Shown: piece after piece, positions 6,306 through 48,235 of the stretch
How positions within the stretch are numbered: the stretch's first letter is position 1
Layout: every line of letters starts with the position of its first letter
Virus record (IMG/VR): IMGVR_UViG_3300048592_001404
Location: 6,317-70,316 of that record
Length of the DNA: 64,000 nt
From: a virus
Direction: 5' to 3' (one strand)
Translations under genes and position numbers: made by a program
Notes under the pieces: generated by a model
What the model was told of the DNA's origin: nothing
Databases searched by the model: none
Seen by the model: only the letters and a program-made list of their open reading frames with translations

Positions 6306-7553
6306 TCAGCCGGTGACCGCGTCGACCTGGGCAAGCAGGTCGTCGAGCAGCGCGTCGAGCGCGGGGCGGTAGCGGGCGGACTGGATACCCAGATACCTGA
6401 GCACCGGCGCCTCCTCGGCGGCGAAGTTGACCGTGAACCTGCCCTGCCGCAGCTCTTCCGGCGAGTTCTGGTCGCGGGTGAACTTGACCTCGTAACCGAG
6501 GATGTCGCCGTCGGCCTTCAGGTCGCGCATGGCGAAGCCCATGGTGTTGAGCACCGCCTGGATGGTCTGGCCGGTGAGATTGAAACGCCCGAGATAGAAT
6601 CGGAGCGTCCGCAGGAACATCAGGTGGATGTAATCGCGCCCGCGGGTGACATTATAGAAGCGCCAGAGATCGTCCTCGCCCGCATTGTCGGTGCCGACAT
6701 AGACAAAGCCGCCGGAGGCGATGGCCGTCTCGACGCCGAGTTCGCCCCTGAGAAGGACACCCACATTATTCGAAAGAAGCCGCTGGCCTTCCGTCGCGCC
6801 ATCGGTCAGCGAGAAATTGATCGGCCGCGAGGGTCCGACAATGCCGGCGACCGGCTGGTTCGCCCAGCTATGGAAGGGGCGTCCCTGCTTCTCGTGGTCG
6901 CGCCTGACGCCAATGCCAATGACGGCGGGGGACAGCGGCATCACCGCTACGTCGCTCCCGGCCATGACGCGGACGGCAGGATCGACCGGGATCAGGCGAC
7001 TTGAGGAAATCGTCTCGCGCCAATCGATGGCGGCCTGTTCCGTGGTGGCGGGCCCGTCCACCACGGCATGGGCGAGAAGCTTGTTGCAGATGGCAGGCAA
7101 CGCTGCGCACACCGCATTGGCATCGGTGCCCGTCCGCTGGCTGGTAAATCCCGGCGCACACAACAGCCTCGGAATGACGCCGAGCAGCGGCCCCGCCTGC
7201 ACGAAGGCCTCGAGGCCGGTGGAGATCCAATCGCCCACGACGTTGGCAATGGTCTCGGCAACGGTCTCCCCCTCCTCCACACGCACCACCACGACCTTGG
7301 CCGCGACCTGGAACTCGCCGAGCTGGGAATTGATCAGGGTCAGCGCGTCCGAGATGGTGCCCTCCGTTCCGAGCGCCGTCCGCTTCGCCGTATCGTCGGA
7401 ATAGAGGAACACCGGCGTATCGAGCGGAAACACCGCCGGATCGGCTTCGGGTGCGGTGCCGATGAGCCCCACCACCGACATGTCGCTGTAGACGGCGGGA
7501 CGCGGCTCGTTGTCGATCCGTGTGATCGAAATGCCAAAGGTTGGATCGGACAT
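6306..7553 (-). CDS. Tail sheath protein (P2 FI-like)
   Basis: MSDPTFGISI...SVVGLIGTAPEAD...FPLDTPV...PRLLCAPGF; start chosen at ATG with GGAG RBS. Confidence 0.92.
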   Translation of the reverse strand: MSDPTFGISITRIDNEPRPAVYSDMSVVGLIGTAPEADPAVFPLDTPVFLYSDDTAKRTALGTEGTISDALTLINSQLGEFQVAAKVVVVRVEEGETVAETIANVVGDWISTGLEAFVQAGPLLGVIPRLLCAPGFTSQRTGTDANAVCAALPAICNKLLAHAVVDGPATTEQAAIDWRETISSSRLIPVDPAVRVMAGSDVAVMPLSPAVIGIGVRRDHEKQGRPFHSWANQPVAGIVGPSRPINFSLTDGATEGQRLLSNNVGVLLRGELGVETAIASGGFVYVGTDNAGEDDLWRFYNVTRGRDYIHLMFLRTLRFYLGRFNLTGQTIQAVLNTMGFAMRDLKADGDILGYEVKFTRDQNSPEELRQGRFTVNFAAEEAPVLRYLGIQSARYRPALDALLDDLLAQVDAVTG

Positions 7554-13303: not shown

Positions 13304-13722
13304 TGCGACAGCCTCTCCTCGATCAGCAGGCCGTCCGGATTGGTGTAGGCGTCGAGCCGCCTGGCACCCGCCGCCGTAAAATCCCCGTAAACGGCGCGCG
13401 GCCGGTACTCGCCCTCGAGAAACACATGAAGCTGCCCGTCGCGCGTCACTTTGACGGCCTCGATGCGGGTCACCCGGAAGCGCGGTTCCCACTGCTCGAT
13501 GGCCGAGGTGATTGCCGCGAAGTAGGGCACCACCTCGTCTGGCGTGATCAGACGTCCCAGCAGGTTCGGGACGAAGGAGCCGTACCACTCGCGCATGATG
13601 CGCGAGCCGAAGCGGGTGTCGAATATGTCCCGGAGCGACTGGATCACATGCTCCCAGCCAGTCAGGATGCCACCGGTCGTTGCGTCGAGGCCGACAGAGG
13701 GATCACGGAGATTGACGCTCAT
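13300..13722 (-). CDS. Baseplate wedge protein W (GPW/gp25)
   Basis: EHVIQSLRDIFDTRFGSRIMREWYGS...AIEQWEPR. Confidence 0.92.
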   Translation of the reverse strand: MSVNLRDPSVGLDATTGGILTGWEHVIQSLRDIFDTRFGSRIMREWYGSFVPNLLGRLITPDEVVPYFAAITSAIEQWEPRFRVTRIEAVKVTRDGQLHVFLEGEYRPRAVYGDFTAAGARRLDAYTNPDGLLIEERLSQ

Positions 13723-15281
13723 GTCTCCGCTCCGTCATTCCCGGCTTCCACCATCGCCCTGATGCGCTCGCCGATCCAGCGCATGACGTTGACCGCCATG
13801 GAATTGCCGAGCGCCCGGTAGCGCGGGCCGTCGGGGCAGTCTTCCGCCGGTTTCTTCTTCCACGGGATGCGGGTGTGTCCTCGTGCAAAGCCTTGCAGGA
13901 ATTCCGCCTCTTCGCAGGTCAAACGACGCACCAGCATTGGCAACGCCACGCAGGGCGCGGTATCGCCCTTCCCCGTCTCACCCGACATGGTGAGGGCGTT
14001 GACAAGGTGTCCCATGTCGCCCCGACCGTTGCGAGCGATCCTTGGCTGAAAGGCATAGGCCGCAACACCGTGCTGTGCAGCGGCCTGAAGTGTGTACATG
14101 GGGTCGCCATCATCGCCGATGCCAAGCCCGGCGCGCCGGTCGCCGGTCGAAGACGGTCCGGTGCGCTTGCCCACTTCGAGCAATGGCACCGCAACCGCCA
14201 TCTGCCCGCCGCCGTTGGCGTGGCTCTTATCATGCGGCATGGCCCTGAGCGTGGGCGAAAGATCTTCCGTTGCATCGGCGCCATGATCCTTGGCCGAGAA
14301 GGCCACGGGCACCAGCGGCGTACCTCGGCCCGTGCCATCTTCCGATGCATCGAACCCCTCGCCACGCAGCGCATGCGTGACCAGCGTCTCGGTCTCATAA
14401 TCCTGCCTTCCCATGCCGCCGGCGTTAAGGCAGTGGGAGATATCGCCGGTCGAAGCCTCACCGACGAGCCCCGCGCCGCGCTGACTGAACAGTTCCTGAT
14501 TGCTGTAGCCGATGGCCCCAGTGTTGAAGGACTGATTGAGCGTCGGATGGGGGTGCTCTACGCCGTCCCAGTGGCTGCGACGCTCGTCAGGGCCTGATTG
14601 AGGGCAAGCGGCAGCGTCTTGCCGCGTTTCGCGGCGCGGCGGAGAATCCCGGCGCAGGCCTTCGAACTCAAGAAGAACCGCCGCGGGATCGATCCCCTCT
14701 CGAGCACTTGCGACAACGAACACACGACGGCGGCGTTGGGCCAGTGCGAAATATTGGGCATCGAGGATTCGCCACGCGACTGCGCGCGCGGGTCCAAGAG
14801 CCACACCCGCGTTCGTCCATTTTCCCCGTGGCGGAACGAAGGGGGTGTCCTCTCCAGAAAGGCCCGAGACGAAGCAGCCGAAGGCATTGTCGCGGACCGA
14901 GAGGACGCCGGGCACGTTCTCCCAGACGACGATGCAGGGCGGCAGTCCACACTCGGCGCGGCGTTGATCGATGGCATCGGCAAGCCTCAGAAATTCGAGG
15001 GTGAGGTTTCCACGGGCGTCATCAAGAGAGCGACGAAGGCCCGCGATCGAAAAGCCCTGGCATGGCGTACCGCCCACCAGGATGTCGGCCCCGGCGATCC
15101 AGTCCTCGTCGCGCAGCAGCGTGAAATCGCCATGGAGCGGCACGTCCGGGTAATGGTGAGTGAGCACCGCCCGGGCGAAAGGCTCGATCTCGGAGAAGGC
15201 CAGCGGCCGGAAGCCCAGCGGATGCCAGGCGACCGTCGCCGCCTCGATCCCTGAGCAGACGGACAGATAGCTCAGGCTCAA
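13719..15281 (-). CDS. C5 DNA cytosine methyltransferase (main/alpha chain)
   Basis: Motif I SVCSGIEA, IV GGTPCQGFS, VI WENVPG, VIII QRRRRVF, IX RRLTCEE..LQGF, X YRALGNS. Confidence 0.93.
   Translation of the reverse strand: MSLSYLSVCSGIEAATVAWHPLGFRPLAFSEIEPFARAVLTHHYPDVPLHGDFTLLRDEDWIAGADILVGGTPCQGFSIAGLRRSLDDARGNLTLEFLRLADAIDQRRAECGLPPCIVVWENVPGVLSVRDNAFGCFVSGLSGEDTPFVPPRGKWTNAGVALGPARAVAWRILDAQYFALAQRRRRVFVVASAREGIDPAAVLLEFEGLRRDSPPRRETRQDAAACPQSGPDERRSHWDGVEHPHPTLNQSFNTGAIGYSNQELFSQRGAGLVGEASTGDISHCLNAGGMGRQDYETETLVTHALRGEGFDASEDGTGRGTPLVPVAFSAKDHGADATEDLSPTLRAMPHDKSHANGGGQMAVAVPLLEVGKRTGPSSTGDRRAGLGIGDDGDPMYTLQAAAQHGVAAYAFQPRIARNGRGDMGHLVNALTMSGETGKGDTAPCVALPMLVRRLTCEEAEFLQGFARGHTRIPWKKKPAEDCPDGPRYRALGNSMAVNVMRWIGERIRAMVEAGNDGAET
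14558..14983 (-). CDS. Overlapping out-of-frame ORF, M.EcoHK31I beta-polypeptide-like
   Basis: +1 frame inside the MTase; C-terminal SLSQVLERGSIPRRFFLSSKACAGILRRAAKRGKTLP resembles beta subunits of split C5 MTases; start uncertain. Confidence 0.7.
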   Translation of the reverse strand: MPMPSINAAPSVDCRPASSSGRTCPASSRSATMPSAASSRAFLERTPPSFRHGENGRTRVWLLDPRAQSRGESSMPNISHWPNAAVVCSLSQVLERGSIPRRFFLSSKACAGILRRAAKRGKTLPLALNQALTSVAATGTA

Positions 15282-15687: not shown

Positions 15688-16266
15688 TCAATTCGCCGGC
15701 ACGTCGGTCAGCCCGCCGCCGGGCACCACGCCGCCATGGATGTGTGTGGACCCAATGTTCTTGCCGTTATGCGTGACCTTGCCGCCGGTGATGGCCACGC
15801 CGGTATCGCTCACTTCAATGTTGACGCCGCCAACCTTGATCGTCACGGCGGCGGACGTGAGTTTCAGGGTAGCGGTGCCAACAACGACCTGGCAGAGGTC
15901 GTCTTTCAGTGTTGCATAGACGTTTCCATAGGTAAGGACGTTCTCGTCGGCTTTGGACGACGGAGATTTATTCTGGTCGCTCCATGTCATCGGCAGCGCC
16001 ACGGCCTGCTGCCAGTCGCCATTGGGCGAGAGTGCGGTGAACTGCTGACCCTTCGAGGGCGGTGTGTGAACCTTCAGCGCCCCCGCGATCTGGGCGTAGG
16101 GCACCCAGGGTGACAGGAAGGGCTTGCCCTCGACATCCTTGCCGAAGTTCAGCCGAACGCGCTGTTTGCCAGGATCGACCTCCTCGACCGTTCCGTGGCG
16201 CATGACGCCCGAGAAGCGGCGCTCCAGTTCTGCGATACGGGCGGCAAGCTCGACCACCTCACGCAT
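15688..16266 (-). CDS. Baseplate spike protein V
   Basis: OB-fold N-terminus (RHGTVEEVD...SPWVP...PPSKGQQ) and C-terminal HIHGGV metal tip. Confidence 0.92.
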   Translation of the reverse strand: MREVVELAARIAELERRFSGVMRHGTVEEVDPGKQRVRLNFGKDVEGKPFLSPWVPYAQIAGALKVHTPPSKGQQFTALSPNGDWQQAVALPMTWSDQNKSPSSKADENVLTYGNVYATLKDDLCQVVVGTATLKLTSAAVTIKVGGVNIEVSDTGVAITGGKVTHNGKNIGSTHIHGGVVPGGGLTDVPAN

Positions 16267-27004: not shown

Positions 27005-27190
27005 CCGGCGGAGTGCGAAGCTCCGGAGAAGCGAGACAACCGTGAACGTGGCACCGATCAGAAGGTTATCGCCGATGGAAGCATGCAGCTCGAAGAGCGG
27101 GAACACGATGATCTGCGTCAGTATCGCAAGGCCATAGCCCACCACGATGTTGGTGACCGCCTCCACGAGGGACATCCAGCGTGACTGCAT
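26981..27190 (-). CDS. Small two-TM prophage membrane protein
   Basis: MQSRWMSLVEAVTNIVVGYG...SLLRSFALRRLF, coupled to the MTase stop. Confidence 0.8.
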   Translation of the reverse strand: MQSRWMSLVEAVTNIVVGYGLAILTQIIVFPLFELHASIGDNLLIGATFTVVSLLRSFALRRLFNVAAS

Positions 27191-28437
27191 CAGGCGGCAT
27201 CCTTCGACTTGGACTCCCGTGCGACCTTCAGGTCGTCGAAGGTCCGGTCCTCACCGTCCAGCACGGCCTTGTTGCCGGTGTAGCCCTGCCAGCGCTGGAC
27301 GATGACATCGACGTACTTGGGGTCGAGTTCCATGAGCCGCGCCGAGCGGCCGGTGCGCTCGGCGGCGATGAGGGTCGTGCCCGAGCCACCGAAGAGGTCG
27401 AGCACGATGTCCCGGCTCTTGGAGGAATTGGTGATGGCGCGCTCGATCAACTCCACTGGCTTCATGGTGGGATGCAGGTCGTTCACCCGCGGCTTGTCGA
27501 CAAACCAGACGTCGCCCTGGTCACGGGCCCCGCACCAGTAGTGCTGGCTGCCGTCCTTCCAGCCGTACAGGATCGGCTCGTACTGGCGTTGATAATCTGC
27601 GCGGCCCAGCGTGAAGGTGTTCTTCGCCCAGATGATGAAGGTCGACCACTTGCCACCGGCGTCGGTGAAGGCTTTCTGCAGGGTGTGGACCTCCGAGGAA
27701 CTCATGCAGATGTAGCAGGCCCCCTTGGTCACCATGAGCAGGTTGACGCAGGTGTCGTAGAGGAACTGGTAGAACCCCTCACCCAAGGCGTCGTTGAGGA
27801 TGCGGCGGTCCTTGCCGCGCATCTTGTCCTTTGCCGAGTTCCCGTAGTCCACGTTGTAGGGCGGATCGAGGGCCGCCATGTCCGCCAGCTGGCCGCCCAT
27901 CAGCTTCTCGACGTCCGTCATCACGGTGGAGTCGCCGCAGAGAACGCGGTGGTCGCCGAGGATCCAAAGGTCGCCGGGACGGCTGACAGATTGCTCGGGA
28001 ACCGGTGGCGCCTCGTCCGGGTCGGTGAGAGCATCGATCTGCTCGGCGCCCAGAAGCCTGTCGAGCTCGTCGGAAACGAAGCCGGTCAGGGCGAGGTCAA
28101 AGTCGTCGAGCTTCAGGTCGCCGAATTCCAGCCGCAGCAACTCATCGTCCCACTCGGCGTTCTCATGCGAGCGGTTGTCCATCAGCCGGTAGGCTTTGGC
28201 CTGGGCCGGGGTCAGGCCTTCTGCGACATGCACCGGGACGGTCTTGAGGCCTAGCTGCTTGGCAGCCTCGAGCCGGGTGTGGCCGACGATCACCACCATC
28301 TTCTCGTCCACGACGATGGGCTGGCGGAAGCCGAATTCGGCGATGGACGCCTTCACGGCATCGATGGCGGCGGCGTTGTTGCGCGGGTTCCGGGCATAGG
28401 GAATCAGCCTCTCCACCGGCATGTCGGTGACGATCAT
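27190..28437 (-). CDS. ParB N-terminal domain fused to N6A/N4C DNA methyltransferase (beta class)
   Basis: LIPYARNPR...GHTRL ParB; DPPY; HPTMKP; VLDLFGGSGTT. Confidence 0.93.
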   Translation of the reverse strand: MIVTDMPVERLIPYARNPRNNAAAIDAVKASIAEFGFRQPIVVDEKMVVIVGHTRLEAAKQLGLKTVPVHVAEGLTPAQAKAYRLMDNRSHENAEWDDELLRLEFGDLKLDDFDLALTGFVSDELDRLLGAEQIDALTDPDEAPPVPEQSVSRPGDLWILGDHRVLCGDSTVMTDVEKLMGGQLADMAALDPPYNVDYGNSAKDKMRGKDRRILNDALGEGFYQFLYDTCVNLLMVTKGACYICMSSSEVHTLQKAFTDAGGKWSTFIIWAKNTFTLGRADYQRQYEPILYGWKDGSQHYWCGARDQGDVWFVDKPRVNDLHPTMKPVELIERAITNSSKSRDIVLDLFGGSGTTLIAAERTGRSARLMELDPKYVDVIVQRWQGYTGNKAVLDGEDRTFDDLKVARESKSKDAA

Positions 28438-34056: not shown

Positions 34057-36411
34057 TCAAACCTCCTCCTGATCGACCCACACATCGGGGTTCTCGACGG
34101 TCAGCAGCGCACCTGTCTGGGGGCACATGAAATCGGTTGGCAGCACTCTCACGACGACCGGCTCGATCTCCCCGGTCTCCGGGTTCAATTCCTCGGCGGT
34201 GGTCTGGAACAGCATGTCCTTCACACACAGGTAGCCGTACTTCATGCTTGCCCGGGGCAGGCCGAGGCGCTCGGCTTCCTCGCCGCGCACGAACTTGATG
34301 TGGCCCTTCGTGGCGAGGACATGGATCCGGTTGCGAATGCTGGTCTCGCCACCGAGGCTCCCCTTGTTCTCGAACTTCGCCGCGAACTGGCTCAGGGTGA
34401 ACATCCTGCCCTGCGCGGCCTGGGCAGCGATCATGTCCACGATCACGCCACCCTTGCGCTCACGCTCCGCGTCATGCTTCGCGCCAACTTCCTTGCGCAC
34501 CAGGCGCTCGTTCATCGGGTTGATCTCAACCCAGCGGCCGTTCTCCTTGTCGATGAGCTTGGGCTGAAGCGCCGGCCCGTTGCGAAGCTCGATCTCCAGC
34601 CTGCGCATGGTGCTGTCCTCGTCGGACCGGTGCATCAGCAGCCCTGAGGTGTAAAAGCCACGCAGCGCGCTGGCGCCGGACAGGGCCTGGAAGGGATCCT
34701 CCGTCACGGCCTTGCGGTTCATCTTCTTGGTGTGATGGGCGAGGATGACGCCGCAATCGGGCGCCACGGCCTCGCGCAGGCGTTCCACCCGCTCGGTGAG
34801 GAAGAACATCATGGCGGCGTTGTCGTTCTCGCTGCTGCCTTCCTCTCCGCCGTCGAACAGGTTGCGGATCGGGTCCAGGCAGATGATGTCCGGCGGGGCG
34901 TCGGGGAACCGGACCCGGACGGCCTCAACGACCAGGGCCAGACCCTTGTCGTCGAGGATCATGCGCAGCTTCGGCGTGGCGAAAAGATTATCGCGCGCAC
35001 CGGCCATCACCGCCGTGTCCAGCCTGATCTGCTGCATGCGCTCGCGGAGATAGTGGTACTGGATCTCGGCCTGCAGATAGAAGACGCGCAGCGCCTGCGG
35101 CGGCGTGAAACCGAGGAACGGCACACCGGCGGCCATGTGGGCGAGAAGGCTGATGAGGAAATCGCTCTTTCCCACCTTCGGCGCGCCGCCCAGGACCAGC
35201 AGGCCTCCCGGTGTCAGTACGCGCGGCGCAATGATGTCCGGGGGCATGGGCGAGCGGTCGTCGAGCAACTGGCCTAGGGAGAACACCGGCAGCGGCTGGG
35301 CCTCCTGCTCAGGGTCCGCCTCGTTGCGCAGCAGCGCCGGGCCGTTCTTCTTCACATGCAGCGCCCAGATGCGTTCTGATTCCTGCTTGAGCCGCTCCTC
35401 CGGCCATGCAGGCCGCAGCATGGCCGCGTTGTACTGGCAGATGGCCTCCCAACCATCGTTGGGGCTGAGTTTTCCCTCATGCACCAGGCGCACGTAATGA
35501 CCGATTGCCGCGCTGGCACCCTCAAACCGCGTCCATGCATCGCCGCCGCCTTCGTGCACGGGCGTGGTGAGGATGGCGTCGATGGAGGGCTTGGTGGATC
35601 CCTCGGGCGGTGGTTCAGCGCCCATGCCGGGAATGAACGGCATAGCCGCCACGCGCTCGCCTAAATCGGCAAGGTCTACCTCGATGGCATTATGCTCGCG
35701 GATCTGCACAAGCCGCTGAAAGCCGCCCTTGTGATAGACGGAACCGGCAACGCGTATCGGCTGGTGGGCCGAGCGGAAGTGGGTGTCGCCGCCCACCTTC
35801 ATGGCGATATCGCCGCGCAGACGGCACAACGTGGCGAGATCATCGCCTGTCGCGGCCTCGGTGAGCTTCCACCACACATGCAGCTTGAGGGCGCCCTCCG
35901 GCGTGCGGCCGCCGCTCTCCACAACCAGCGTGGGCGTGCCCAGATGGTGGACCAGGTGCGTCAGCTTCGCCAGGATGTCGCCGGCGTCGAGATCCACGAC
36001 CACCGCCTGCATCTGGAGCACTTCATGCGCGCGCGCCTGACCCTGGGCGGCCACGGTGCCGGGGATGACATAGAGGGCTGCCCCCTCGCGCCACGCCCAG
36101 GTAGCGAAGGTCTTCAGCTTGTCAAAGGCGGAAGCGTCGGCGTCGATCCAGATGTTGTTGGGCTTGCCGTCCCTGCCCTGCCCCTTGTCCACGAAGCCGC
36201 GGACGGGGATGAGGCCCTCGCAATAGCTGAACACCACATCCAGAAACGTTGCAAGCTGCTCCGGATCCGGCTCGATGCCGAACGGGTCTTCCTGCAGGGG
36301 CGCGTCGTTGAAGTCGCGCCACGGGTTGAAGTGGATCACCTCGCCGATAGGCTTCTGCTCAGTCTGCTGGCCTTCACCCGAACCGGTCGTATCGTCGGTC
36401 TGTTCGGTCAT
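34057..36411 (-). CDS. Primase (RepB'/AEP-like) fused to AAA_25 helicase
   Basis: VVDLD, PTLVVESGG, LHVWW, IRVAGS; GAPKVGKS Walker A, LAHHTKK, SGASAL; start trimmed to ATG overlapping upstream stop. Confidence 0.88.
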   Translation of the reverse strand: MTEQTDDTTGSGEGQQTEQKPIGEVIHFNPWRDFNDAPLQEDPFGIEPDPEQLATFLDVVFSYCEGLIPVRGFVDKGQGRDGKPNNIWIDADASAFDKLKTFATWAWREGAALYVIPGTVAAQGQARAHEVLQMQAVVVDLDAGDILAKLTHLVHHLGTPTLVVESGGRTPEGALKLHVWWKLTEAATGDDLATLCRLRGDIAMKVGGDTHFRSAHQPIRVAGSVYHKGGFQRLVQIREHNAIEVDLADLGERVAAMPFIPGMGAEPPPEGSTKPSIDAILTTPVHEGGGDAWTRFEGASAAIGHYVRLVHEGKLSPNDGWEAICQYNAAMLRPAWPEERLKQESERIWALHVKKNGPALLRNEADPEQEAQPLPVFSLGQLLDDRSPMPPDIIAPRVLTPGGLLVLGGAPKVGKSDFLISLLAHMAAGVPFLGFTPPQALRVFYLQAEIQYHYLRERMQQIRLDTAVMAGARDNLFATPKLRMILDDKGLALVVEAVRVRFPDAPPDIICLDPIRNLFDGGEEGSSENDNAAMMFFLTERVERLREAVAPDCGVILAHHTKKMNRKAVTEDPFQALSGASALRGFYTSGLLMHRSDEDSTMRRLEIELRNGPALQPKLIDKENGRWVEINPMNERLVRKEVGAKHDAERERKGGVIVDMIAAQAAQGRMFTLSQFAAKFENKGSLGGETSIRNRIHVLATKGHIKFVRGEEAERLGLPRASMKYGYLCVKDMLFQTTAEELNPETGEIEPVVVRVLPTDFMCPQTGALLTVENPDVWVDQEEV

Positions 36412-42877: not shown

Positions 42878-43600
42878 TCATGCATTTTTTTCCAGAGCCC
42901 GGCGGAGCCTCTGCGCCGCACGCTGGTAGCGCTTGCGGGCCGCACCTTCGGAGATGCCAAGTTCCACAGCGACTTCGGCCTGCATGAACCCCTCGACTGC
43001 GACCCGGATGACCAGGGAGGCCTCGTCTCCGATGAGCCTGCCCAAATCGGAATGCAGCAGGGCGGAGCTGAGTCGCTGGCCATCAGGTGCCCCGTCGTCC
43101 GGCAGATCGTCGGGAAAAGTGCTGGAGGTGACGCGCTGGCGCTGGGCCTCCCCGCGGCATGCGCGGACCATGTCGCGCTGAATATTTTTCAGGGCGGTGG
43201 CGGCAATCCAGTTCACGCGGCCGAGGTCGAGCCCGCGGAGGGTTTCCGTGGCGCGGGCAAGAATGTCGGAGGTGATTTCGGCGGGGGTGCCGATCCTGAG
43301 TCGGAGGGAACGCCGCCGGACGGCGTCGAGGCCCGGCCAGAGCGCGAGAAGCAGGACCGTGAGCGCAGTGTCTGTTTCAGGTCCGGTGCGATGAGCTTCC
43401 CGCACCAGTGCCTTGAGGCAATCATTCTTGCCGTCAGGACTTCCGGACTGGCGGTGCAGCGCATCAAGCAGGGCCGCCGGGTCACGGAACGGCGCGAGAG
43501 GCGAACAATTCCGGCGGATCAGGTCGAAGCGGCGCTGGAAGGTGAGTGTACGAGAGGAATGGAGAAGATTGTCATGGATCGCGTGCCACGCGAGAGACAT
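42878..43600 (-). CDS. Phage-encoded ECF/sigma70-like factor
   Basis: Region-4 HTH GFMQAEVAVELGISEGAARKRYQRA; region-2-like WIAATALKNIQRD. Confidence 0.75.
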   Translation of the reverse strand: MSLAWHAIHDNLLHSSRTLTFQRRFDLIRRNCSPLAPFRDPAALLDALHRQSGSPDGKNDCLKALVREAHRTGPETDTALTVLLLALWPGLDAVRRRSLRLRIGTPAEITSDILARATETLRGLDLGRVNWIAATALKNIQRDMVRACRGEAQRQRVTSSTFPDDLPDDGAPDGQRLSSALLHSDLGRLIGDEASLVIRVAVEGFMQAEVAVELGISEGAARKRYQRAAQRLRRALEKNA

Positions 43601-43668
43601 CGGACGCCTGCCTTGCGGCCAGGCGTCGGGCGCCTTGTCTTGGCCAGGTCAGGACGTCGCGCGTCTCT
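43593..43668 (-). promoter_or_regulatory. Structured 5' leader occluding the sigma start codon
   Basis: AGAGACG can pair with TGTCTCT spanning the start; inner GACGCCT-G-GCC-GCAA-GGC-AGGCGTC hairpin. Confidence 0.6.
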
Positions 43669-43698
43669 AGGGTTGTGGGGAGGAGGAGGAGTCGGGTG

Positions 43699-43941
43699 TC
43701 AGCGCCTCGGCGCTGACATCTTGTTCAGGCTGCCGCAGCCATGGCACTTTGCCGTGACCGGATAGGCGACCAAATATTCCTGGCAGCTCTTGATCCTGAT
43801 GTGCATCTCCTCGCCCTGGGGGATTCCAAGGAGCTTGCCACAACAATGGCAGCGCCATTCATCCCGCGCCGGCACGCGGCTCTGCCCTCCGGACTTGAAA
43901 CTGCGGCCGTAAGAATATTCGGCTCGGGTCGTCTGCTTCAT
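43699..43941 (-). CDS. Mu Com-like zinc-finger protein
   Basis: WRCHCCGKLL...TAKCHGCGSLN four-Cys pattern; AGGAG RBS. Confidence 0.72.
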   Translation of the reverse strand: MKQTTRAEYSYGRSFKSGGQSRVPARDEWRCHCCGKLLGIPQGEEMHIRIKSCQEYLVAYPVTAKCHGCGSLNKMSAPRR

Positions 43942-44051
43942 GCGCTACTCCTATGGGGGTGAAATGACGTAAGGGCGCGAGGAACCTGTCGGAGAAACAG
44001 CGTGGGCTGCTCCGTCAGGATCTCGACGTTTTGGGAAAGGGCTAGGAGGTC

Positions 44052-46269: not shown

Positions 46270-46479
46270 ATGGAACGCCCGAACCCCCTCGACCCAGCCC
46301 GCATGACGCCCGCCGAACGCCTCGCCGAACTCGGCCGCACTCTCGCGGCTGGGTTCATTCGCATGAAGGCCCGCCAGTCCAGTCCTTTATCTGCTGACCG
46401 GGGAGAGAGTTCCGTCGACTTGTCCCCGCCACAGAGCGGTCATGCAACCCGCAACTCAGATAGAGGCATGACACGATGA
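46270..46479 (+). CDS. Small hypothetical protein preceding DUF2924
   Basis: PNPLDPARMTPAERLAELGRTLAAG; GGAGG RBS; ATGA coupling. Confidence 0.75.
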   Translation: MERPNPLDPARMTPAERLAELGRTLAAGFIRMKARQSSPLSADRGESSVDLSPPQSGHATRNSDRGMTR

Positions 46480-46919
46480 CTGATGCAGTACTGGCGCGGC
46501 TAGCCGCATTGAAGACCACCCCGACGCCCAAGCTGAAGGAGCAGTGGCGGCAATTGTTCGAGCGCGAGCCCCCCGCCTTCAACCGCCGTTACCTTGAAAG
46601 CCGCCTCGCCTACCGGATCCAGGAACTGGCCTATGGCGGCCTGAAGCCGGAGACGGTGCGGCGGCTGGAAAAGCTCGGCGAGGAACTGGACGGCGGCAGC
46701 AAGGCGAAGCGGCAGACGCGGGCGGACAGCAGGCCGATTTCCGGGACGCGCCTGATCCGGGAGTATCAGGGCGTCGAGCACTGCGTCACGGTGCGGGACA
46801 ATGATTTCGAATATCAGGGGCGACCCTACAATTCCCTTTCGGCAATTGCGCGAGCCATTACCGGCACGCAGTGGAACGGGGTAGTCTTCTTTGGGTTGAA
46901 ATCCGGGAGGCGCGCATGA
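46476..46919 (+). CDS. DUF2924 domain protein (candidate recombination directionality factor)
   Basis: LAYRIQELAYGGL...GTRLIREYQG..H.VTV...SLSAIARAITGTQWNG..FFGL. Confidence 0.92.
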   Translation: MTDAVLARLAALKTTPTPKLKEQWRQLFEREPPAFNRRYLESRLAYRIQELAYGGLKPETVRRLEKLGEELDGGSKAKRQTRADSRPISGTRLIREYQGVEHCVTVRDNDFEYQGRPYNSLSAIARAITGTQWNGVVFFGLKSGRRA

Positions 46920-48235
46920 CCAAGCCAGCTGCCCGAAAGTTTCGCTGCGCCGTCTACACCCGCAAATCTTCCGAGGAAGGTCTCGAGCAGGAGTTCAACA
47001 GCCTCGACGCCCAGCGCGAGGCCTGTGAGGCCTACATCGCCAGTCAGCGCTCCGAGGGCTGGGTGCTGGTGCGCGGCCATTATGATGATGGCGGGATTTC
47101 CGGCGGCACGCTAGACCGCCCTGCCCTCCAGCGGCTCCTTTCCGACATCGAGGACGGCCTCATCGATGTGGTCGTGGTCTACAAGATCGACCGCCTGTCG
47201 CGCTCGCTGATCGATTTTTCCAAGCTGGTGGAGGTCTTCGACCGGAACAACGTGACCTTCGTGTCCGTAACCCAGAGCTTCAATACCACCACCTCCATGG
47301 GGCGGCTCACCCTCAACATCCTGCTGTCCTTCGCCCAGTTCGAACGCGAGGTGACCGCCGAGCGTATCCGCGATAAGGTTCGCGCCAGCCGGATGAAGGG
47401 GATATTCATGGGCGGCACCCCGCCCTACGGCTACAAGCCGAAGGACCGGAAGCTGGTGATCGATGAAGAGGAAGCCAAGAACGTCCGCTGGATCTTCGCG
47501 CGCTTCCTCGAGATTGGCTCCGCCACGGAACTGGCGCGGGAGGTGTCGAAACGCGGCATCCGCACGCCGCGCGGCAACCCCATGAGCAAGAACTTCCTCT
47601 ACCGGATGCTGAACAACCGCGCCTACATCGGCGAGGCCGTCCATAAGGGCACAGGCTATGCGGGAGAGCACGAGCGCCTCATCGACCAGCGGACATGGGA
47701 GCAGGTTCAGTCCATCCTGCAACAAAGTCCCCGCCTCCGCGCCAGCAATACGCGTGCAGAGACACCGGCCCTGCTGAAGGGCCTGCTCTTCGGGCCGGAT
47801 GGTGCCGCCTTCTCGCCGACGCACACGCGCAAGGGCGACCGCCTCTATCGGTACTATGTCAGCCAGACAGTTCTGAAGCATGGCGCAGGCAAATGCCCCG
47901 TGGCGCGTGTGCCCGCCGCCGAGATCGAGGCCGCCGTCATCGGCCAGATCCGTGGCATGCTGCGCGCGCCGGAAGTGGTTATGTCCACTTGGCGGACGGC
48001 ACAGCCAGAATGTGAGGGCCTCGCGGAAGATGAGGTGCGCGAGGCTTTGGCTGCACTCGACCCGCTCTGGTCTGAACTCTTCCCTGCCGAGCAGGCCCGT
48101 ATCGTCCAGTTGCTGATCGAGCGCGTGGACATCGGCACAGATGGTCTGAGACTCAGGTTCAGAGACAAGGGGCTGGCGCAGATGGTGACGGAGGTCGGCA
48201 TTATTACCGGCAAGAGCCGAAAGGCGGCGGCATGA
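46916..48235 (+). CDS. Large serine recombinase (integrase)
   Basis: CAVYTRKS catalytic motif, YDDGGISG, VYKIDRLSRS, recombinase domain. Confidence 0.95.
   Translation: MTKPAARKFRCAVYTRKSSEEGLEQEFNSLDAQREACEAYIASQRSEGWVLVRGHYDDGGISGGTLDRPALQRLLSDIEDGLIDVVVVYKIDRLSRSLIDFSKLVEVFDRNNVTFVSVTQSFNTTTSMGRLTLNILLSFAQFEREVTAERIRDKVRASRMKGIFMGGTPPYGYKPKDRKLVIDEEEAKNVRWIFARFLEIGSATELAREVSKRGIRTPRGNPMSKNFLYRMLNNRAYIGEAVHKGTGYAGEHERLIDQRTWEQVQSILQQSPRLRASNTRAETPALLKGLLFGPDGAAFSPTHTRKGDRLYRYYVSQTVLKHGAGKCPVARVPAAEIEAAVIGQIRGMLRAPEVVMSTWRTAQPECEGLAEDEVREALAALDPLWSELFPAEQARIVQLLIERVDIGTDGLRLRFRDKGLAQMVTEVGIITGKSRKAAA

Follow-up and report, generated by a model that had tools for sequence, protein, structure and literature searches.

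The 64,000-nucleotide (nt) stretch of DNA analysed here (the window; positions 6,317 to 70,316 of the 70,316-bp IMG/VR virus record IMGVR_UViG_3300048592_001404) carries on its minus strand a compact three-part cassette. Its first part is a gene for an 80-amino-acid (aa) protein with a Com-like four-cysteine zinc ribbon (43699..43941; core residues 28-75), assigned from its open reading frame (ORF), a homologue alignment, hhalign and an AlphaFold2 (AF2) model. A 98-nt leader (43601..43698), delimited by sequence and by a covariance model, separates the stop codon of this gene from the start codon (43598..43600; placed by ORF and homologue alignment) of a gene for a 240-aa sigma factor resembling those of the extracytoplasmic function (ECF) type (42878..43600; assigned from Pfam, a family profile, AF2 and Foldseek). 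Until now Com has stood as an isolated textbook example of a zinc finger that melts a hairpin in mRNA, which allows mom or a related DNA-modification gene to be translated. An earlier note on this DNA, made from the letters alone, had proposed the same mechanism for the sigma gene, and our analysis partly supports the cassette, which is widespread in alphaproteobacterial prophages and has a new leader RNA motif, as an application of the Com principle. Here an uncatalogued leader RNA ties what appears to be a distant relative of Com, unrecognised by Pfam, to a sigma gene, and at hundreds of prophage loci from Rhodobacterales, Hyphomicrobiales and their relatives this leader is much more strongly conserved than the flanking proteins.

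The sigma family comprises 618 clusters at 50% identity (E<=1e-3), and a sample of 401 genomes from its class contained 7 that carry it. The loci compared here are the best 80 per scan, namely 80 from species genomes, 160 from viral contigs and 80 from metagenomes, the metagenome scan having used a distant query to spread the sample; some contigs were sampled twice, and the loci are not all independent. A sigma start could be located at 319 loci, 290 of which had at least 260 nt of upstream sequence. At 284 of these 290, an ORF with a CxxC...CxxC pattern ended 69-143 nt 5' of the sigma start, and the spacer was 99 nt at 165 of the 284. Inspection of the remaining six revealed a zinc-finger homologue at each, intact at three (including two distant loci with a C-x4-C second knuckle) and truncated or frameshifted at three. 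Searching in reverse, with an alignment of the zinc-finger proteins, returned the sigma gene downstream at 80 of 80 viral loci and both RNA motifs at 79 of 80. The gene after the zinc finger was sigma-like at all 290 loci found via sigma and all 80 found via the zinc finger, and was never mom or a DNA-modification gene. Zinc finger, leader and sigma gene are inseparable in every locus examined.

At the three loci with a truncated or frameshifted zinc-finger gene (L047, L247 and L270), the leader and the sigma gene appear undamaged, and prophage decay or faulty assembly may account for these cases.

Structure and conservation of the leader

Enough sequence was available for 304 leaders, which reduced to 137 distinct sequences in a MAFFT alignment (A6); leader counts below refer to these 137. 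Between the window and main-group loci, identity is 91-94% over the 69 nt immediately preceding the AUG, as against 58-60% for the zinc-finger coding sequence, 49-60% for the 5' spacer and 64-75% for the sigma coding sequence. A covariance model (R2) scored 99.9 bits at the leader and at most 12.8 bits at its next match in the window. The Rfam search that the earlier note had suggested as a check matched no family to the leader: there was nothing in it at E<=10, and no family reached its gathering score in the whole window. A coding role for the leader was rejected, as it holds no start codon and its only open frame is interrupted by a TGA in L047 and L123. Even taken by itself, the leader deserves to be described as a new cis-regulatory RNA family.

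The aligned leaders share three elements, all on the minus strand. P1 (43650..43669), recognised from pairing in the alignment, is a 7-bp hairpin with a bulged A (UAG-A-GACG, loop CGCGA, CGUC-CUG) and is the proposed protein-binding hairpin. A second copy of the hairpin motif, P1' (43622..43634; GGCG, loop CCCGA, CGCC), was recognised in the same way. P2 (43596..43634), supported by alignment pairing and by folding, is a long helix of 16 pairs with a 1-nt bulge and a GCAA loop (43616-43613). The hairpin around this loop that the earlier note had drawn is real and forms the core of the longer helix (GACGCCT at 43627-43621, then G and GCC, the loop, and GGC followed by AGGCGTC to complete 43612-43603). 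P1' overlaps the 5' arm of P2, and P1' and the lower half of P2 are mutually exclusive. A conserved linker, ACCUGGCCA plus a 5-nt variable patch (43640-43636), occupies 43635..43649 in alignment A6 and repeats the CCUGGCC of the P2 5' arm; the twofold occurrence of CCTGGCC...CAAGG that had been pointed out (43648-43633 and 43623-43611) is likewise present.

P2 includes nt -1 in a pair and continues into the sigma gene, where the start-codon U and G and the first two positions of codon 2 are paired as well. A Shine-Dalgarno-like run, AAGGCAGG (-14 to -7; 43607..43614, from sequence), lies within the P2 loop and 3' arm and has a computed unpaired probability of 0.16. The earlier claim that the sigma start region is buried is thereby borne out by a conserved helix with covariation support. 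The companion claim that this run is the only purine-rich one holds at Shine-Dalgarno distance from the start, but not for the 98-nt spacer as a whole.

P1 together with P2 is the structure with the strongest family-wide support. Across their 23 pairs, 95.5% of cells were paired, compared with 23-44% in slid controls, and eight pairs showed compensatory change on both sides. Taken singly, P1 was paired in 96.4% of cells, P2 in 95.1% and P1' in 98.4%. The start-codon U and G pair with G60 and C59 almost throughout (60:94 in 137 leaders and 59:95 in 136). Pair 62:92, which holds nt -1, was U-A in 50 leaders, C-G in 46, U-G in 11, G-C in 5 and other in 24, with 35 state changes on the sigma tree. 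P1 pair 22:33 was A-U in 112 leaders, G-C in 25 and unpaired in none; exchanges were also seen at 71:84 (U-A 110, C-G 6), at 66:88 (C-G 132, U-A 2) and at P1' pair 60:66 (G-C 134, A-U 2). The clade of L191 and L265 changed three P2 pairs together with pairing kept, and its helix runs through a GUG start. G-U wobbles on this strand, 11 at 62:92 and 8 at 64:90, argue for RNA rather than DNA. The P2 tetraloop fits GNRA in 131 leaders, with variation at the N and R positions, and both hairpin loops follow C-N-N-G-A: C, G and A are kept in 136, 137 and 136 leaders in P1 and in 136, 137 and 137 in P1', and the middle two positions vary in both. From the MAFFT alignment RNAalifold recovered P1, P1' and a fragment but missed P2, an omission that we attribute to the bulge and gap columns.

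In the window itself, P2 has a C-C mismatch at 63:91, and a hairpin in the coding sequence (CGCG-UGGCA-CGCG, ~43592-43580) competes with the P2 extension. Two relatives, L164 and L189, have CCC (Pro) as sigma codon 2 where close relatives have UCC (Ser), a change that converts a G-U to a G-C pair with the leader. This Ser-to-Pro replacement may be driven by RNA pairing.

The earlier note had also enclosed the hairpin in an outer stem, pairing AGAGACG (43668-43662) with TGTCTCT (43599-43593, covering the UG of ATG). Both segments were confirmed on the minus strand, as was the zinc-finger stop, which ends at 43699, 30 nt 5' of AGAGACG. The 3' strand of this stem (43593..43599) shows pairing in the alignment: relatives retain the inner four pairs (116, 137, 137 and 136 leaders) but not the outer three (52, 77 and 116), and as drawn the stem is not a family feature. 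Pair 22:96 of the stem covaries (A-U 112, G-C 22, G-U 3), and the 5' strand also serves P1. The folding energy of the 97 nt from -72 to +25 (43576-43672), -46.4 kcal/mol, was matched by 1 of 200 shuffles (z = -3.04), more structure than chance would give; z fell below -2 in 8 of 12 leaders tested. The outer stem with its hairpin comes to -41.1 kcal/mol, 5.3 above the minimum free energy (MFE) of -46.4 for the window, and the core hairpin alone (43627-43603) to -17.5 kcal/mol.

The hairpin pattern GRCGCNNGACGYC has three exact matches in the window, where 0.66 were expected, and 5 of 100 shuffles reach three. The third match, at 16197-16209 on the plus strand, opposite phage genes, was set aside as within chance.

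The zinc-ribbon and sigma-like proteins

The zinc-finger gene has a canonical Shine-Dalgarno sequence, AGGAG (43948..43952), 6 nt 5' of its AUG, whereas the sigma gene lacks a canonical one. In an alignment of 27 homologues of the zinc-finger protein, R30, C31, C34, L38, C66, C69, L72 and N73 are invariant, the cysteines forming the CxxC...CxxC four-cysteine zinc ribbon of the Com family. The first knuckle, R-C-x2-C-x-K-L-L, is common to this family and to Com. The 80-aa protein had no PHROG match and no Pfam match at threshold, and precomputed Pfam assignments were absent for 7 of 7 close zinc-finger clusters. PF10122 (Zn_ribbon_Com) was the most-matched Pfam family, reached by 19 of the 27 homologues at E<=10 with a best E of 2.6e-4. 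We compared the 27 homologues by hhalign with 16 Com-family proteins (Mu Com taken from AF083977; 21 relatives gathered, 16 aligned), which gave a probability of 89.4% over 38 columns and E 2e-6, a pairwise value without database correction. Both zinc knuckles were matched. The AF2 model has five beta strands and a predicted local distance difference test score (pLDDT) of 74.8, and Foldseek matched it to generic zinc ribbons only (best E 9.9e-3 in BFVD and 0.68 in PDB). The identification with Com made in the earlier note thus holds at the level of profiles, but the window protein itself falls under the Pfam cut-off and fold searches retrieve nothing closer than generic zinc ribbons. We regard "Com-like" as denoting a supported but distant relationship.

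No start codon lies between an in-frame TGA (43651-43649) and the sigma ATG at 43600, whose placement is sound, since among the 150 best homologues the majority have alignments that begin at residue 1-5. Region 4 lies above the Pfam cut-offs (Sigma70_r4_2, 27.4 against 25.7 bits; Sigma70_r4, 24.8 against 24.1). Pfam Sigma70_r2 gave no match for region 2, while NCBIfam alignments span residues 62-237 and PDB alignments residues 102-236. The NCBIfam model sigma70-ECF TIGR02937 scored 26.3 bits, under its cut-off of 42.9, and the family profile matched solved ECF sigma structures (CnrH, 2.7e-5). The AF2 model reached a pLDDT of 92.6, and its top Foldseek matches were almost all sigma factors (whole ECF sigmas), the best at E 4.4e-3 and none at or below 0.001. 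An extra conserved region of ~100 residues precedes the sigma domains at the N terminus. From sequence and model the protein appears to be a divergent ECF-like sigma factor with this N-terminal extension.

Proposed Com-type activation and its rivals

We propose that the cassette of zinc ribbon, ~99-nt leader and ECF-like sigma works by Com-type translational activation of a phage sigma factor, a reading that we hold at slightly better than even odds (a probability of roughly 0.55). Translation of sigma would be blocked by the folded leader. On the same transcript, the zinc-finger gene, with its good Shine-Dalgarno sequence, would be translated, and its product would bind the C-N-N-G-A hairpin or hairpins as Com does its own hairpin; this binding would remodel P2 and let ribosomes start on sigma. 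If the zinc-ribbon protein opens P2, sigma would therefore be made only after that protein has accumulated, which would amount to a translational delay timer, and the sigma factor would presumably redirect host RNA polymerase to later phage genes. The original proposal gains support from the kinship with Com, the buried start, a C-N-N-G-A hairpin just 5' of the helix and the strict linkage; a simple equilibrium switch, by contrast, proved energetically costly in silico.

The parallel with Mu is close in arrangement. In both systems the gene for a small four-cysteine zinc ribbon immediately precedes, within one operon, the gene that it presumably controls. PMC6483171 places the Mu Com site next to the translation-inhibition structure of mom, whose hairpin holds the mom start codon, and reports that in the target loop the GA is crucial and the first C protected. 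The same paper describes several copies of the Com motif, partly overlying the inhibitory structure; in our predictions, too, the start-codon hairpin is directly preceded on its 5' side by a short hairpin with a C...GA loop and is overlapped by copies of the motif. The systems differ in target, which is a DNA-modification enzyme in Mu and presumably a sigma factor here, and in spacing, com and mom overlapping (com 35768-35956, mom from 35907; AF083977) where the genes here are ~99 nt apart. They differ also in the zinc ribbon, which here carries a 16-residue insertion in the hhalign alignment, a beta-hairpin, and scores under the Pfam cut-off, and in their setting, which here is alphaproteobacterial hosts and a serine recombinase, not a transposase. 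According to PMC3299994, Com homologues in the FluMu and Pnm1 prophages, with 44% identity to Mu Com, precede adenine methyltransferases other than Mom. These show that Com-type regulators can pair with another downstream gene, as here; those are close Com homologues in Mu-like prophages, however, and their target is still a DNA-modification enzyme.

Several observations weigh against this proposal. On the protein side, the window zinc finger scores 10.4 bits (E 0.45) against PF10122, short of the gathering cut-off of 22.9; hhalign against Mu Com alone gives a probability of only 22.6%; and Foldseek finds no specific relative of the model, with nothing at E<=0.001 in BFVD or PDB. The loop motif, GC-NN-GAC, is similar and not identical to the Com motif CC(N)2-3GAG. 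The covariation rests on few independent events: P1 pair 22:33 changes only three times on the sigma tree, and independent-contrast tests on that tree are underpowered, with 2-6 supported contrasts and no sign test reaching 0.05. The near-invariance of the 69 nt exceeds what a Com-type model needs, and is not fully explained by any reading offered here. The window MFE structure is another fold, a long-range rod tipped by P1', with the P2 3' arm and the start codon both paired to the first repeat; in the window it is predicted to be 10 kcal/mol more stable than P1 plus P2. A leader constrained to form both hairpins lies 7.5-24 kcal/mol above the free ensemble, and the computation makes its AUG no more accessible. 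On these energies, a mechanism consisting solely of equilibrium capture of P1' is disfavoured and was rejected. Since the folded state is very stable, P1' would probably be captured during transcription; if the Com-type model is right, it probably involves such co-transcriptional capture or help from another factor.

A more elaborate form of Com-type activation, which we entertain only tentatively, makes the leader a three-state protein-responsive RNA switch, with the Com-like protein locking a both-hairpin state during transcription. Two exclusive folds, P1 plus P2 and a rod with P1' at its tip closed by the outer stem over the AUG, would each hide the ribosome-binding region and show one C-N-N-G-A hairpin only, with the pairing potential of both conserved. 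Sigma translation would then serve as a concentration-dependent developmental timer. The Shine-Dalgarno-like run and the AUG are indeed hidden in both folds, and the linker (43635..43649) pairs with the P2 3' arm in the window MFE. The rod is 89.8% paired across the 137 leaders, a figure that follows in part from the mere similarity of the two repeats. The MFE fold of the window differs from that predicted for most relatives. A switch of this kind would make Com-type activators a general phage device, not a mom curiosity.

The leader could instead be a translational block in cis that is relieved by RNase III, a host factor, a ligand or temperature, with another job for the zinc ribbon; we regard this as unlikely. 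P2 and its extensions form a long near-continuous duplex in 8-9 of 12 predicted folds, the rod comprising ~27 bp, and RNase III cuts such duplexes in phage leaders (lambda N, T7 early mRNAs). The computed cost of equilibrium hairpin capture favours relief by other means, and the near-invariance of the 69 nt suits a more elaborate RNA. A block of this sort, however, leaves unexplained both the constant presence of the zinc-finger gene directly upstream and the two invariant C-N-N-G-A hairpins that resemble Com sites.

Quite improbable, in our estimate, is that the conserved block acts as DNA, as operators or as an autoregulated ECF-type sigma promoter bound by the zinc finger, the sigma factor or another regulator. 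Two real direct repeats of ~16 bp (GAGRCGC-NN-GACGYCC) lie 32 bp apart, some sources label Com homologues "DNA-binding transcriptional regulator", and high identity with little covariation suits protein-DNA recognition. A TGAAAY box stands ~10 nt 5' of P1, and ~15 nt 5' of the CGTC of P1, in 94 of the 137 leaders; this resembles the consensus of an ECF -35/-10 pair, and in the main group the two elements could form an ECF-type promoter. The box is missing at 43670-43682 of the window and in divergent clades, however, and an ECF-type promoter (TGAAAY-N15-CGTC) was rejected as a general feature. Compensatory changes and G-U wobbles track RNA pairing on this strand, GNRA loops are kept though N and R vary, and the helix extends exactly to nt -1 and into the AUG. 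Moreover, P1 covaries, although it would be missing from any transcript that started at a promoter inside it.

ECF sigmas are commonly encoded with a small, often zinc-binding regulator. Our sigma-like protein shares with ECF (group 4) sigmas its apparent two-domain form, a region 4 over the cut-off and a linked small zinc protein, but a part for the zinc ribbon as partner or anti-sigma of the sigma factor, with the hairpins as ordinary mRNA structure, is very improbable despite the strict linkage: the zinc-finger gene lies upstream of sigma in all loci, unlike ZAS genes, which lie downstream; an invariant His of the ZAS anti-sigma motif HxxxCxxC is absent from the 27 homologues, whose invariant residues are R, C, C, L, C, C, L and N; the closest family by profile is Com, so that the small protein of this phage-borne module resembles an RNA-binding activator rather than an anti-sigma; and the invariant leader is left unexplained.

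If Com-type activation is right, these phages would time their transcription programme by translational activation, and the cassette would offer a compact protein and RNA system for study and as a genetic part. Phages can time development with sigma factors or late-gene activators of their own, such as SPO1 gp28 and gp34, T4 gp55 and P2 Ogr. Like these, the sigma described here would presumably redirect RNA polymerase, and its gene lies early, before those for replication and structural proteins; none of the factors named is known to be gated by a Com-type activator and a conserved leader RNA. A search of open-access papers and preprints found nothing on a Com-like protein with a sigma factor.

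Phage setting and distribution

The cassette lies in the early region of a temperate tailed phage. It belongs to a leftward minus-strand array that starts beside a plus-strand DUF2924 gene and a serine recombinase (46476-48235). Within the array, a replication-initiator-like gene with DnaD_N/HTH_36 (44855-44052; true start uncertain) precedes the zinc-finger gene (43941-43699) and the sigma-like gene (43600-42878) in the operon. Genes for a Sak4-like ATPase, a helicase, a primase and methyltransferases follow downstream of sigma, and the array ends with terminase, portal and tail genes, including a tape-measure gene (5312-2925). The minus strand between the zinc-finger and sigma genes showed neither a promoter-like nor a terminator-like site.

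In the window, a GC-rich hairpin (AGCGC-CGAG-GCGCU; 43701-43714, minus strand) adjoins the zinc-finger stop codon, and main-group relatives have a GCGCGC-UGAC-GCGCGC hairpin at the end of this gene with the stop codon inside the loop. It is not a classical terminator, because no U-tract follows it. The phage also has two large DNA methyltransferase genes on the minus strand (27190-28437 and 13719-15281), one of them fused to a ParB-like domain. A 257-aa ORF (42134-41361), two genes past sigma, resembles the N-terminal part of a methyltransferase PHROG.

Going by record titles, most of the 80 species-genome loci belong to Alphaproteobacteria, chiefly Rhodobacterales and Hyphomicrobiales. Searches of the cultured-phage collection by tblastn gave no match to the window sigma, the main-group sigma or the zinc finger. 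Viral-contig scans with single protein queries likewise gave no matches; alignment queries found the loci. Contigs from RNA libraries (four runs, four studies) span the zinc-finger ORF, the leader and the sigma start of L058; we did not count them as evidence, because contigs cannot show a single transcript and DNA was possibly present. One locus, L022, places the module, otherwise found in alphaproteobacterial records, in a record titled as a Woesearchaeota archaeon metagenome-assembled genome, which is probably a binning artefact. Some genomes hold two to four copies of the module (L031/L032/L054, L007/L069, L040/L047/L078 and L041/L043/L045), and some of these copies lie on high-coverage contigs of 1-2 kb, as expected for related prophages that collapse in assembly.

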